Source: Eledone cirrhosa (taxonomy: Eukaryota). From it: DNA of 64,000 bases. Positions 776 through 56,018 of the stretch are shown here, piece after piece. Numbering within the stretch: position 1 is the first letter of the stretch; each line of letters opens with the position of its first letter. The translations under genes and the position numbers were made by a program. Below the pieces are notes generated by a model. That model saw only the letters and a program-made list of their open reading frames with translations. It had not been told where the DNA came from and did not search any database. The stretch covers positions 241,428,001-241,492,000 of the forward strand of contig OZ024743.1 in the NCBI GenBank assembly GCA_964016885.1, written 5' to 3'.

Positions 776-1262
776 TAAAATATGAGTAGTTAAGATGGGA
801 TTATTTTACCATAATTGTTTATTGCATGATATACATGGTTATGCATGTGACTTCATCGGATGCTTAAGCAATCATACGTACAGTAGGTGCAGTTATGCAA
901 TCATTTGGACATGCTGCTGGCCATGTATAACTATCCTCTAGTGATGGCAACAGTCATATTTATACATGGCCAGCAGCATATACCAATGATTACATAACTG
1001 TACCTATGATTGCGTAAGAATCTGATGAACTCATATGAATAACCACGCAACAGAAATATATATCATGTAATAAAGCAATTATTGTGAAATCATTTCGTCT
1101 TAACTATTCTTATTTGATAAATGAATACTCCGTCACTCCTAATCACCAACTCATACCTGGGATAAACTACTGACATGAAGTGCTTTTGGATCGCTCGGAC
1201 CGGTTTATCCTCAAGAAGTTACGATGTAACAACTACTTATAAGCAACATTACTTCTGCAACA
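776..1262. mobile_element. Diverged fold-back element (family A), arms ~776-951/958-1119, ~140-nt extension on the right
   Basis: TAGTTAAGATG/CGTCTTAACTA and TGCTGCTGGCCATGTATAA/TTATACATGGCCAGCAGCA are reverse complements; degenerate HHR CTGATGA(1022)...GAAA TATATA TC(1064). Confidence 0.65.
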
Positions 1263-2078
1263 TACATATATATGTATATATACGTATATTCATATTTCCA
1301 TATATATACATACATACCCCGCCACACATACGCGCATGAATATACGTGCATATATACGCACGAAAGTAGCCCTTCGAATGCACACAAACACCCACATACG
1401 CCCACATACACAAACAATAGGGGCGATGCTTATATATATATCCATTATCTCACAAATCACAGCAAAGACTATATTTTTTGTCGGATCGCCAGTCGGAAGT
1501 GCAGATCGATATTGGAGTCGGATTCATAAATTCTACGTGTGACCCTGCGCTACTCCTCTGCAAAACATGCGTAATACAATAACAAATTCAACACATGTAA
1601 ACGAAACTTCATCGTTTTTATTAATATAGACACTCTGCTGTGCATCGAGTGCTCGTAATTCACTGAATCACATACACTGCATATATATATATACAGGTAA
1701 AACTTGAACCGTTAAGGTCTCACTCCTGGATATGTCAATATTTATAAAACAAACTTTGTATTTTATCTGATGTGTGCGTACCAAAGTTTTGTTACCCTTG
1801 AAATATATATAACAGAATAAATATGGTTTTATAAATATAGTTTCCATTTATTAATATCATATATATTATAAGTATGTATACATACATACATATATGTATA
1901 CAGACGTACAGTAGTATGTATATATATACATACATGCACACATATATATATATATGTACGTATGGATTTACCGAACATTTATTATAATGCTTGGTTTGTT
2001 TGTAAACAAACATTCCGAATTAAGCCGTACAGTGTTTAGCAACCATCGTTGCTCTTTTCTTCAACACTGACAAAGGAA

Positions 2079-2119
2079 CGCTGTACTAGTTTCAAGCTTA
2101 TTAGCTATCGTCAGCAACG
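2079..2119 (-). ncRNA. Minimal type I hammerhead ribozyme (family B)
   Basis: CGTTG-CTGACGA-TAGCT aata AGCTT-GAAA-CTAG-TA-CAGCG; stem I CGTTG/CAGCG, GUA cleavage triplet, U-U at base of stem II. Confidence 0.75.
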
Positions 2120-2241
2120 TATACGTTCCTGCCAGATGATTGAACGTCTGAAAGTATATACTTTCCTTATGCATATTAACGTTAATATGCATAAGGAAAG
2201 TATATGCTTTCAGACGTTCAATCATCTGACAGGAAGGTATA

Positions 2242-2282
2242 CGGTGCTGACGATAGCTAATAAGCTTGAAACTAGTACATCG
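2242..2282 (+). ncRNA. Minimal type I hammerhead ribozyme (family B)
   Basis: CGGTG-CTGACGA-TAGCT aata AGCTT-GAAA-CTAG-TA-CATCG; stem I still pairs despite two differences from the mirror copy. Confidence 0.75.
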
Positions 2283-2570
2283 TTCCTTTGTCAGTGTTGA
2301 ATAAAAGGGCAACGATGGTTGCTAAACACTGTACGGCTTAATTCGGGATGTTTGTTTACAAACAAACCGAGCATTATAATAAATGTTCGGTGAATCCATA
2401 CGTACATATATATATATATATGTGTGCATGCATGTATATATATGCATACTACTGTACATCTGTATACATATATGTATGTACGTATACATACTTATATTTA
2501 AGTAACAGCCGTACTAAGAGTGAGAAATGAAATTTCGTTTCATTTTTTCCATATATATATTACATATATG

Positions 2571-2740
2571 CAAGGTGCCCCAAAAGAACGTATAATACAC
2601 TTTCATTTGAATGCTATTCAAATCTGTGTACATTTTTGGGACACCCTGTATATATATATATATATATATTCACGCACAGGGTGACCCCCAAAAATGTATA
2701 CACACATGAACAGCATTCAAAAATGAAAGTGTATACATTC
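2571..2740. mobile_element. Two ~80-bp Tc1/mariner-like MITEs (2571-2649; truncated inverted copy 2677-2740)
   Basis: Imperfect TIRs CAAGGTGCCCCAAAA / TTTTTGGGACACCCTG followed by TA; second copy starts CAGGGTGACCCCCAAAAATGTA. Confidence 0.55.
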
Positions 2741-52184: not shown

Positions 52185-52265
52185 CACATGTGTCCCTATC
52201 TTTGTATTGTCCCCTATATGGCGACCCTTGTGGCCAATAAATGAAACCATTATTATTATTATATT
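52185..52265 (+). mobile_element. 3' tip of a Tx1-related element
   Basis: ACCCTTGTGGCCAATAAATGAAACC(ATT)n parallels ACCCTTGTGGTTAATAAAGAAAAC(ATT)n at ~44273. Confidence 0.55.
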
Positions 52266-54429
52266 AGAAAAAAAGTAAAGTAAAAAAAGTAGAAATGATT
52301 ATCATTTTCATAATTATTATTGTTGTTATTGTTTTAACTAAATTCTATTCTTCAGAATAGAACATTGATCTCGAGGAAATCCCCTCATTTATGTTTTGGG
52401 GTAAATATGTATATATATATATATATATATATATATATATATATATATATATATATATATATATATATTCAATACATTAACAGAGAAAGCTTTAAGCGAT
52501 ACTCTGATCAACTCCATCTCACTCAACAAACATTAGGATATACCTAAGTATAATCCCAATAAGTGTTTGGGGTGCTAACTATATAGTATTCCGTGGATAG
52601 TTGGTTGTATTATTTTATATGAGACATAAATATATATATATATACATATATATGTGTGTGTGTGTGTGTGTGTGTGTGTGTGTGTGTGTGTGTGTGTGTG
52701 TGTGTGTGTGTGTGTGTGTTTTGTCACCCATAGCTTCATGTATAAATATAAGTAGCGCCTCTAAGTAATTTAATATCCAAACTAGAAAAGAAGATGTGTT
52801 GGGGGGAGGGATGAAACAATCAGCATCGTGACAAGAAGTTCTAGTTTATCTTTTATTAATATCTGTAAATACTGGTTTATTGTGATAAAGCCATTTGAGA
52901 AGTGTCATCTAATGACATATAATAGCCGAACTTAGCGGAGCACACTCCCTCTCACGCTTCCTCTCTTTCTCTCTCTCTCTCTCTCTCTCTCTCTCTCTCT
53001 CTCTCTCTCTCTCCCTTACACACACACACACATACACACACACATACACACACACACACTCTCTCTCTCTCTCTCTCCCTCACACACTCTTTCTCTCTCT
53101 CTCTCTCTCTCTCTTTCTCTCTCTCTCTCTCTCTCTCACACACACTCCCTGTCTATCTCTCTCTTTCTTTCTTTCTTCTTCTTTCTTTCTTTCTTTCTTT
53201 CTTTCTTTCTTTCTTTCTTTCTTTCTTTCTTTCTCTCTCTCTCATATTCTATCTCCCACTTCCTCACACTGTCATTCTTTCTTTCTCCCCCTCTCACGCT
53301 TCTTCCCCCTCCGTCTCTCTCTCTTCTTTCTCTTTCTCGCTCTCTTTCTCTCTCTCTCTCATATTTTCTCTCTTTCTCACTCCGGTACACTGTCATTTTC
53401 TCTTTCTCTCCCACTCAGGCGTTTCCCCCTCTTTCACACTGTCTTACTATTACACGCTTGCTGACCCCCCCCCCTCCTCTCTCTCTCACCTACCGTCATT
53501 ATTTGTGAAATATAAAGATCTTTATTACCAATATATTGATATATGTCTTTGCAATCTGCCTTCTATTACGATTAAATAAGATACGATGTCATCTCACATA
53601 CACACACAAAGGCACACACGCACACACACACACACACTAATTTACACAGACATATACATACACACACAGACACATACACACACAGACACATACACATACA
53701 GACACATACATTAACACATAGATATATACACGCGTTTACTCAAACATTCCCTGCTCACTAACCTCATTAGCAATACATATACATGTGTGTACATCCAACT
53801 TCACAAGCACACATGCACACACATAAATATATGTTGTGTGCCTGCACATTTCCGTGTGCATACTAGAGAGTTTTTGAATATGTATGGATGCATTATATAT
53901 ATATGCATACATGCTTATATACATACATATATATATATATATGTGTGTGTACGCGCACATACACGCACATATTATTTTTATTAACGCCAAATCAATTATT
54001 ACCCTTAAAATGAAATGAATATTAAAACTCTACTTCGATATTGAGTAACCTTTTCTTTCATCCATCAGCCACATACGGATATATATATATATATATATAT
54101 ATATATATATATATATATATATATATTTATATATATATATATATATTTATATATATATATATATATATATATATATATATAGTGAAAAATTGAACGGGAA
54201 CAAAACAGAGAGGCAGTACGAACAAAGGTTTATTAATTTCACGCTCTTAAGAGTGGGGTGGTGGTGGGGAACGACGTTTCGGGCATATATATATATATAA
54301 TGTAGGAGGTGAGTTTTATTGTAGTACAATAAAGCAATGCAGATATCGGATAAGAAGCACTCTACAGTTTGTAGGACTTGAGTATACATAATATATAAGA
54401 TCAAAGGATGGTTAAAGGAGTTCCATGTA

Positions 54430-54496
54430 TTTTATTATGCGCATTTCAAAAACAAACATGATCATGCAATAATATTTGTGTTTTCATCAGATAAAA
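54430..54496 (-). ncRNA. Type I hammerhead ribozyme (family H, mirror copy)
   Basis: Reverse complement of 54561-54627 with one difference. Confidence 0.8.
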
Positions 54497-54560
54497 CAGG
54501 AGGACATGAAAAACTGCACTATCCACAAGTGTTTTTTAGCCTTCATATCATGTCCTCCTG

Positions 54561-54627
54561 TTTTATCTGATGAAAACACAAATATTATTGCATGATGATG
54601 TTTGTTTTTGAAATGCGCATAATAAAA
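54561..54627 (+). ncRNA. Type I hammerhead ribozyme with extended stem II (family H)
   Basis: TTTTAT-CTGATGA-AAACACAAATAT...ATGTTTGTTTTT-GAAA-TGCGCA-TA-ATAAAA. Confidence 0.8.
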
Positions 54628-56018
54628 TACATGTAACTCCTTTAACCATCTTTTGATCTTATATATATTATATATATATATATATATATATGTATATATA
54701 TACGTATATATATATATATATATATATATATTGGTAAACGGAAAAGAAAATGCTGACAAATTGTTCACAGTGAAAAATAGTTTAATTACGAATAAGTGAA
54801 AATTAGTAATAGTATTGGTTAGTATTCAGTTTTGGTTTTAAGTCTTAACGGTTGCGCATTTCTAATGCTTTTCAAAAATAATATTGAGATAGAGCGTCCG
54901 TGATGTTTGCTCTAATCTGATTAGTTTTGGAAATTCTACCTGTTTTTATGTGAAAAAAGTGGCTCCAGATGTATTAAAATAAGTTTCGCGCCAATTCGTG
55001 TTGCAAAAATTCTTGTGGTCAAAACAATTTTAATTGGCCGGTAGAGGTCATGTGAATGTAAAAAATTGATTTTGCGTCAAATGTAGGTTTGTGTCGGCTG
55101 ACTGAGAAATAAGTCTTTCACAACAAATATGTGTGTGTGCGTGTGTAGTAGTAGTAAAGAGGTTCGTTGTTGTGATAATGGTCAGCAGGCATGTGTGTGC
55201 GAACCGCAGCCTGTTGACAGTTCAAATGCCTATCAAGACAAGTGTGTGTGTATGTGTGTGTGTGTATGTGTGTGTGTGTGTGTGTGTGTGTGTGTGTGTG
55301 TGTGTGCGCGTGTGTGTGTGTCTGTGTGTGTGTGTGTGTAGCAGAGTAATTCGTTGAGGGATGGTCAGTAGGAATGTGTCTGTAAGTGTGTGGGGGGATA
55401 TTTTAACATGTTAAAAGATATTTTTCAGCTCTTGTCTTATACGGAGAAGTGTGTGTGTGTGTGTGTGTGTATGTCTCTTTGTATGTTAATGTACGCGTGT
55501 GTATGTGTGTGTGTATATATATGTGTGTGTGTGTGTATATGTGTGTGTGTATATGTGTGTGTGTGTGTGAGAATGTGTGTGTGTGTGGGGGTGGACCAGT
55601 ATTTTTTGTGATACTGGTAAAATGGTGTACATTATTCGATATTTTCAGTAAAAAGGATTCTCTCAATAGAACATCAAAAACCTTAATAAAAGGTGGCATA
55701 ATACCAAGGTGTGTGTGAGTGTCCAGATTGTACGTACTGCAAGGGGAATCCATTAGGCCTTGCCGTATTGGAATGCTTGTGTACAAATATGCATGTGCCC
55801 ATCAGTGTGCAATGCATGTGTGCGTTTATGTATGTGTGTGTGTCGGCACGTTTATATCTATAGACATCAAAAGGTATGCAAATTTGTGTATATTTGTGTT
55901 GCACCATAGAACATGTGTGTTTACGTATGTCATTGTGTTTATATGTGGATAGAGATGTATGTAGGATGTTTGCTGATGTAGGTATGTATATTGACGTGTG
56001 TATGTTGTGGGTTCGTCT

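Follow-up and report, generated by a model that had tools for sequence, protein, structure and literature searches.

Insertions of EN+ PLEs are described in the main text of PMC8557442 as an inverted 5'-truncated copy with a tail on one side, partial tandems and a hammerhead ribozyme (HHR) in the pLTR; the same text gives (TA)n as the target of the Naiad and Hydra PLEs and names the formation of inverted and tailed insertions as an open problem. In vitro TPRT with PAc (Poseidon_Ac) revealed two internal RT start sites, the tail being the interval between them (Frangieh et al., 2024; PMC11167929). Both strands of an AT-rich target were cleaved and extended in that system, HHR cleavage did not define the ends and a dimer was predicted; according to its main text, in which inverted insertions are not treated, the RNA start sites had no homology to the cut DNA and did not differ between strands. 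Animal non-LTR retrozymes are thought to depend on PLEs (PMC7229834; 10.64898/2026.07.22.740005), and in the main texts of these two sources neither 'inverted' nor 'tail' serves to describe how insertions are built.

The window analysed here is a stretch of 64,000 nucleotides from Eledone cirrhosa (contig OZ024743.1, positions 241,428,001 to 241,492,000), in which a first-pass annotation had listed 13 insertions as head-to-head fold-backs in (TA)n whose termini are unequal, one long and the other short. Self-BLAST and jump alignment to family references found fold-backs at 13/13 of the listed places, and 12/13 are a head-to-head pair in (TA)n carrying the modal long end and the modal short end of the family, such that the description stood except for the family G insertion at 23077. 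The count of seven families with A as a possible eighth was muddled, the list itself naming eight with A included.

778..1261: family A fold-back; minus arm from the short end (778-955), plus arm to the long end (956-1261); tail ~145 nt; decayed HHR core at 1022 (+)
1867..2552: family B fold-back; short left, long right; 430-nt tandem monomer, putative retrozyme; type I HHR at 2114-2084 (-) and 2247-2277 (+)
3163..3603: family C fold-back, short at the left end and long at the right, with a tail of ~130 nt
4174..4457: family B fold-back (B 4165); long left, short right, the short end eroded by ~11 nt
6771..7575: family D (subfamily 1); the minus arm (6771-6849) is short and the plus arm long, the latter with the end of GIY-YIG (YIGET motif near 6857) and an HHR at 7326-7360
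17441..18001: family E fold-back; long left, short right; tail 34 nt; 317-nt tandem monomer, putative retrozyme; HHRs at 17639-17606 (-) and 17837-17870 (+)
18047..18136: family D, a mini-insertion in which an 18-nt long arm (-) meets a 72-nt short arm (+); without a palindrome because the arms do not overlap
19836..20581: family F, short at the left end and long at the right, with a tail of 166-169 nt; tandem monomer of 595 nt whose copies are 99-100% identical; lacks an HHR core
20600..21114: family D (subfamily 2), with the short end on the left and the long end on the right; HHR core at 20811 (+)
22021..22982: family B fold-back that includes tandem pieces, its left end long and its right end short; HHRs at 22294 (-) and 22737 (+)
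23077..23923: family G, the exception; the left end is short and the right end falls 19 nt before the short site; tandem monomer of 482-489 nt; HHR cores at 23232 and 23721 (-) with long stem II
24921..25684: family D; short minus arm of 687 nt, reaching the endonuclease end, joined to a 77-nt long plus arm; HHR core at 25167
54298..54666: family H fold-back, long at the left end and short at the right, with a tail of ~91 nt; HHRs with long stem II at 54490-54436 (-) and 54567-54621 (+)

The tails measured are 34 nt in E, 56 in B, 59 in D, 91 in H, 113-116 in G, 130 in C, 145 in A and 166-169 nt in F, which replaces the arm excess of 17-140 nt given at first. In the G insertion, counted initially as a long+short pair, the left end is the family's short site and the right end stops 19 nt before that site; its '17-nt tail' is therefore not the family tail. 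The long site of G lies 113-116 nt beyond the left end of the window copy and is used in 4/5 two-armed G loci outside the window. The orientation proposed for every insertion (left arm minus-sense, right arm plus-sense) agrees with the HHR cores in B, D, E, H and A; in G it was read by eye from the long-stem-II HHR, in C it follows from a GIY-YIG ORF upstream in other copies, and in F it comes from geometry only, because neither CTGANGA on either strand nor an Rfam ribozyme match was found in the monomer.

Family D has the make-up of an EN+ PLE. The ORF at locus L367 (1273 aa, stop to stop) contains YVDD, a CX4CxxC linker (HCTNRKCIIC) and a VVYSI..YIGET GIY-YIG, that is, a PLE-type RT plus a GIY-YIG at the C terminus within one ORF, and the family has an HHR in the pLTR, an inverted copy and a one-sided tail; the RVT_1 match of this ORF is weak (E 2e-4) and below the Pfam cut-off. 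In family C, copy L134 reads CNCRNKANC...NIVY..YIGAT, a CxCX5C linker followed by GIY-YIG. Set against the EN+ PLEs in the main text of Craig et al. (2021), C has the Hydra-type linker, together with a (TA)n target, and D a CX2-5CxxC linker before a C-terminal GIY-YIG, by motif the trait by which PMC8557442 defines the Neptune clade. Judging from these motifs, C is the 3' end of an autonomous PLE. The endonuclease motifs of D and C were read from translations, and Pfam profiles did not detect their GIY-YIG or C-terminal pieces. No HHR core was found in the window copy of C, and the Rfam scan of the window gave microsatellite-driven miRNA noise only, among 150 of 168 matches listed.

Families B, E and G are non-coding tandem monomers (430, 317 and 482-489 nt) with a type I HHR, the long-stem one of G being read by eye. 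They resemble the animal non-LTR retrozymes as their main texts present them, and we assign them to that class on these traits; circular RNA and self-cleavage are predicted. F was not retained as a retrozyme for want of a type I HHR. Its contigs in runs of other organisms (X4, X10), single and of low depth, do not count here as horizontal transfer. H and A resemble pLTR stubs.

The proposal that two modal ends pair as long+short far above chance was upheld. Among same-family two-ended units in 1.2 Mb sampled evenly from the genome, 64 were long+short, 3 short+short and 0 long+long (n=67; p ~3e-16 at 50:50), and all loci pooled gave 180, 8 and 2, respectively (n=190). The rule was followed by 16/16 two-armed loci with both ends visible in the young family F and by 3/3 multi-kb pairs of the autonomous family D (RT + GIY-YIG), and it holds across about twenty families, autonomous and non-autonomous. 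The exceptions are long+long in B (L007) and N (L148/L151), short+short in G (L240) and T (L305), and the window G; outer ends are also irregular at several of the older loci of B, E and A. A first B sample, biased to long ends by the query, was excluded from the end frequencies. One-armed copies are common (6/24 F loci; 41 unit-filling one-ended units against 65 two-ended), and target-site duplications are unreadable inside (TA)n. Because the multi-kb pairs of D obey the same rule, long+short pairing is a general PLE grammar and not the property of a special network of small ribozyme parasites, as had been suggested; D and C represent the 3' ends of autonomous PLEs, H and A mostly pLTR stubs with a fixed 5' end, and F is devoid of a hammerhead core. 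The pairing rule was not found in the openly readable main texts; supplements and subscription papers beyond these (e.g., Arkhipova's earlier PLE reviews) may contain it.

The termini lie off the HHR cleavage sites, as noticed from the outset; in B the core is at monomer position 128 and the ends are at 374 and 433. The termini are TA-like, with an overlap of at least 3 nt between the short site and (TA)n in 11/22 families, against 6% expected. Like PAc, these insertions have two start sites, a tail between them and ends independent of HHR cleavage; unlike in PAc, there is TA-like homology of 2-5 nt at the start sites, and a different site serves each end of an insertion. The TA-like words point to a short primer-template pairing; the earlier view that self-complementarity of (TA)n is the cause of the long+short pairing gained no support in the form proposed. 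At the junctions between arms the mean microhomology is 1.5 nt, reaching at least 3 nt in 10/44 clean junctions (~6.5% expected), and small templated duplications occur at 6 of 50 junctions. The longer arm may be either the long-ended or the short-ended one. In 6/16 F loci the long-ended arm does not include the whole of the short-ended one, and the arms of the D insertion at 18047 do not overlap, so neither arm was copied from its partner. The inner ends had been regarded as truncated 5' ends; the arms of H, C, A, I and O instead pile up at one fixed 5' site, to which both arms often run, between TC and ATATG in H and between TC and ATTATT in C. Nine H arms have a non-templated base before this site, and in 7/9 it is a G, including both arms of L101 (a small count, by eye); this extra G is likely the trace of an RNA cap. 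Stalling of long arms at the short site, which had been predicted, was weak, with 7/95 against 3.4 expected (p 0.06) when L119, L237 and L314, judged by eye to be mis-calls, are excluded; p is 0.002 with them.

At shared polymorphic sites, differences are smaller within than between loci in family I (0.10 vs 0.32, 28 units), H (0.17 vs 0.43, n=13) and E (0.13 vs 0.32, n=12). The arms are fully concordant in haplotype at 6/7 informative F loci, and in B three locus-private variants are common to both arms. D arms are hardly closer than random pairs (0.39 vs 0.50, p 0.09; 0.30 vs 0.34 in a second comparison). Conversion between arms, or subfamilies active at different times, could also explain the shared haplotypes. 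H site 149 and D site 204 differ between arms in nearly every locus, which was taken as an artefact of the genome-search seed, and the 'CTTCGG' haplotypes of family I are misalignments in an internal palindrome. Variants in the retrozyme arrays are common to only some monomers and do not require a circular template.

Starting from the geometry, the modal ends and their pairing, the TA-like start words, the junction microhomology, the arm haplotypes and the fixed 5' ends, all observed directly, we consider it likely that the window insertions are PLEs and PLE-like non-coding repeats laid down as two head-to-head copies, from two fixed sites, in one integration event. A GIY-YIG/RT complex would cut both strands of (TA)n, and both cut ends would act as primers on RNA of a common source, reverse transcription starting from one internal site at the first end and from the other site at the second. 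Microhomology-type repair would then unite the cDNAs by their 5' ends; where one cDNA only is kept, a one-armed copy would result. We infer that both sites are used in a single event, one per target end. From the earlier interpretation, this keeps the PLE machinery, the two fixed internal start sites, the priming by both target ends and the joining of cDNAs at their 5' ends. In L1 twin priming, both target strands also prime on one RNA, and the resulting arms stand head to head, their 3' ends facing outward, with microhomology where they meet, but the second site is variable and the arms barely overlap, whereas in E. cirrhosa both sites are fixed and the arms usually overlap. The template would most likely be a single transcript, either re-read by displacement or read at different monomers of one multimer; we prefer this slightly to a dimer that holds two transcripts from the same locus.

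A dimeric RNP with two separate RNAs, one subunit per site, usually from one locus and sometimes from two families, is a possible alternative that we regard with some doubt. The two arms of H stop at one shared putative cap in L101, L112, L118, L127 and L130, the 3.5-kb arms of L367 cover the same ORF, D arms differ at shared sites, and a dimer is predicted for PAc in the main text of PMC11167929. Two cross-family joins, L233 (G-short + E2-long) and L023 (I-short + B-long), follow the long+short rule with no TA between arms and no mirror in the flank; these joins and the arms reaching the capped end fit two RNAs better than one. They come from 18 candidate units examined, long ones falling outside coverage and L128 in neither tally; L049 and L177 were discarded as flank mirrors, and L342, L334, L301, L184 and L230 as the 5' end of family b or nested pieces. 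However, no clear subfamily mixing was found in 28 family-I units or 7 F loci, even though F is non-coding with several young haplotypes, and the cross-family joins, which amount to ~1% of two-armed units, may have arisen by deletion between neighbours. Tentatively, the PLE complex may be an asymmetric two-RT machine that opens (TA)n, allots the long site to one of the DNA ends and the short site to its partner, copies as far as the cap and can take up RNAs of two unrelated families at once, producing ribozyme chimeras (G-short + E2-long, I-short + B-long); palindromes on the order of 100,000 in this genome would then be the product of this single rule.

A second arm templated by DNA, through snap-back of the cDNA or repair at a (TA)n cruciform that duplicates the element end, would account for the small snap-back duplications at junctions and for arms sharing haplotypes, and TA-centred mirror duplications of the flank do exist (5/737 random TA blocks, 0-2 in shuffles); these mirrors, however, are rare and tail-to-tail, and the fall of the second end on the other fixed site is left unexplained. 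The non-nested arms, in 6/16 F loci, several D, C and H loci and the window insertion at 18047, contradict this route as a general rule; we find it improbable overall, and it may apply to a minority of cases. Still less probable are one-armed insertions that arose independently and came to lie next to each other by chance, or TIR/fold-back DNA transposons (MITEs). Such elements do stand densely in the genome (400 kb contain 621 TA runs), one-armed copies are common and inverted ends beside TA look MITE-like, but there is no TA between arms, and the pairing statistic, with 64/67 discordant ends, refutes independent insertions. In place of the symmetric terminal inverted repeats and fixed interior of MITEs, the ends are asymmetric and the centre varies from copy to copy, D and C have RT/GIY-YIG ORFs, and 400 kb contained 29 asymmetric and 0 true symmetric TA-flanked inverted repeats (by eye). 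Fold-back chimeras are a recognised artefact of long reads, yet an origin of these arms in reads or assembly is scarcely credible: the arms diverge by 1-7%, up to 25% in old A, their ends are fixed and asymmetric, and public contigs X1-X3, from a single sample that may be the assembly's own, contain head-to-head D joints at many positions.

The fold-backs are thus real and mostly of a known type, with the layout and the two sites already published; added here are the shared source haplotype of the arms, the fixed 5' sites, in some arms with an extra G, the TA-like start words and the cross-family joins. The near-strict pairing in ~20 unrelated families turns the in vitro two-site result into a sharp prediction, namely one site per target end in one event. 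Compared with the animal retrozymes described, the E. cirrhosa arrays show the full PLE footprint, which F shows without an HHR core; on retrozyme arrays this footprint would be a direct sign of PLE mobilisation, and it gives genomic evidence for PLE enzymes inserting retrozymes rather than growth in place. Because there are ~53 labelled two-armed units per Mb (a rough lower bound; ~160,000 genome-wide), such units are a major source of palindromes in the E. cirrhosa genome.

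The assembly is 3.0 Gb in size and the window is rich in (TA)n; when the window was compared with itself, with microsatellites masked, local inverted repeats were present at all the places named in the first-pass annotation, which had described about 13 head-to-head fold-back insertions joining one long and one short terminus. For each of the eight families A to H, the top 30 loci were collected (240 loci, duplicates among them) and compared with family references by jump alignment, strand change being allowed. Among these best loci, each family has two modal 3' ends adjoining TA, the long and the short end, separated by a tail. 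The same alignment paired a long with a short end in 12 of the 13 window insertions; the family G insertion breaks the pairing, as it ends on the left at the short site, with the true long site 113-116 nt beyond. The tail, earlier put at about 17-140 nt, is shortest in E (34 nt) and longest in F (166-169 nt). The proposed arm orientation holds for A, B, D, E and H from their hammerhead ribozyme (HHR) cores, for G from an HHR with a stem II of about 55 nt recognised by eye, and for C from a GIY-YIG endonuclease upstream in other C copies, but in F, where no HHR core was found, it is given by geometry only.

Some window features were absent from the first list. Families J, I, K and b show the same TA-adjacent ends, and two larger features lie further along:

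91-245, 606-760, 2747-3072, 17261-17393: TA-ended families (J, I, K, b)
19668-19770, 24826-24910, 54182-54284, 4820-4876: the same families, continued
56050-56900 (minus strand): terminal part of a further PLE-like ORF, stopping at a TA run, with a GIY-YIG motif (NLIYVLTC..C..HYIGQT) recognised by eye
35299-50154: big interleaved direct repeats (0.7-2.1 kb, 88-95% identity in the self-comparison), probably nested copies of another retroelement

The pairing was also counted in an unbiased sample of 120 evenly spaced 10-kb stretches, in which TA-adjacent termini were clustered de novo; units were TA-bounded, shorter than 3 kb and had both termini of one family, and 4 B units delimited by an internal TA of B were left out. 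Across 20 families, end positions were not random: 64 of the 67 same-family units were long+short, 3 short+short (2 of them E-type arrays divided by internal TA10-12) and none long+long. Tail-to-tail mirrors across TA were rare, at 5 of 737 random blocks versus 0-2 in shuffles. Family I was the most frequent two-armed family of this sample. The 30 loci of family F represent 24 distinct insertions, and all 16 two-armed insertions showing both ends were long+short; 6 others are one-armed and 2 extend beyond the locus. All loci together gave 180 long+short, 8 short+short and 2 long+long units, with true-looking exceptions in B (L007), G (L240), T (L305) and N (L148/L151). Head-to-head D joints were numerous in public contigs of one sample. 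The pairing is real and highly regular, and chance neighbours as the source of two-armed units, MITEs or an artefact are each unlikely as its general explanation.

Families B, E, G and F are tandem non-coding monomers of 430, 317, 482 and 595 nt, respectively, and F copies are 99-100% identical. A full tandem F monomer (window 19992-20580) also occurs at low depth in contigs of two public runs labelled as other organisms (X4, X10), where it may stem from carry-over, diet or transfer, and some F words are present in 16 studies. Family D corresponds to the 3' end of an autonomous and abundant Penelope-like element (PLE); at its locus L367, a frame of 1273 aa contains YVDD, a CX4CxxC linker and GIY-YIG, with a weak match to RVT_1 (E 2e-4). 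Multi-kb head-to-head pairs of autonomous D were long+short in 3 of 3 cases (L367, L368, L366+L369), so the pairing is not peculiar to small ribozyme parasites. In several D copies (L162-L189), a third type of end falls between the two modal ones, 12-13 nt short of the long end, and the 5' ends of some D copies lie near the HHR cleavage site. Family C is likewise the 3' end of a PLE, whose CxCX5C linker is the one ascribed to Hydra in PMC8557442. Within H and within A, most copies have one fixed 5' start and resemble solo pseudo-LTRs; no ORF was found upstream of them in the flanking sequence covered.

A PLE would make the break in (TA)n, and we consider it likely that both break ends prime reverse transcription, each using a different one of the two fixed internal sites, with RNA of a single source as template, the two cDNAs then being joined 5' to 5'. 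Short sites overlap (TA)n by at least 3 nt in 11 of 22 families versus 6% expected. Clean junctions (n=44) have a mean microhomology of 1.5 nt, with at least 3 nt in 10 of them, and 6 other junctions carry small templated duplications. The second arm could instead arise by snap-back copying, which is unlikely as a general explanation because arms are not nested in 6 of 16 F loci and at window 18047; since arms are not always nested, both appear to be copied from RNA. The long arm is not shown to stall where it crosses the short site (p 0.06). The short site inside long arms hosts later insertions or TA growth (L119:1495-2101, L100, L288, L289), which would fit cleavage of a PLE repeat by the element's own endonuclease.

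The two start sites may be served by a single transcript or, less probably, by two transcripts in a dimer. Arms of H, C, A, I and O accumulate at a single 5' site, which reads TC|A in H and C, and the non-templated base there in H is G in 7 of 9 such arms (both arms in L101; counted by eye), which suggests that synthesis ran off a capped end of the RNA. This piling up and the extra G speak for two transcripts, as do the overlapping 3.5-kb arms of L367 and two joins of unrelated families that still keep short+long, the only clean ones among 18 cross-family candidates to lack TA or a flank mirror:

L233:1472-2760: G-short and E2-long, head-to-head (E2 monomers 1 and 2 identical across 316 nt)
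L023:1407-1870: I-short and B-long, head-to-head

Either join could also have come about by later deletion between neighbours. In families I, H, E, F and B, by contrast, the two arms of an insertion carry the same source haplotype, with only weak agreement in D; this agreement and the strict pairing favour a single transcript. At L334:6420-6535, the 26 nt at the 5' terminus of family b are joined on the same strand to a family S arm, possibly by template switching of the reverse transcriptase between RNAs.

Several loci also carry inverted duplications of the flank around a (TA)n run (19-68 nt):

L227:1295-2132: four in a row
L018:1924
L354:4557
L285:3689
L049:4002

In both L049 and L177, the mirror copy is joined to the 5' terminus of a PLE copy with a single arm, which would fit snap-back of one target end on DNA.

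The window insertions belong to an already known kind of element. PMC8557442 describes insertions with an inverted 5'-truncated copy and a tail on one side only, targeted to (TA)n, and terms the mechanism open. In PMC11167929, both target strands are cleaved and each is extended, reverse transcription begins at two internal sites that flank the tail, and a dimer is predicted. Retrozymes are linked to PLEs in PMC7229834 and 10.64898/2026.07.22.740005, and PMC9977147 reports an autonomous/non-autonomous PLE pair yielding short insertions in a microsatellite. An explicit long+short rule was not found in the main texts of the openly available papers searched. The pairing rule is a useful and testable refinement of the open PLE insertion mechanism.
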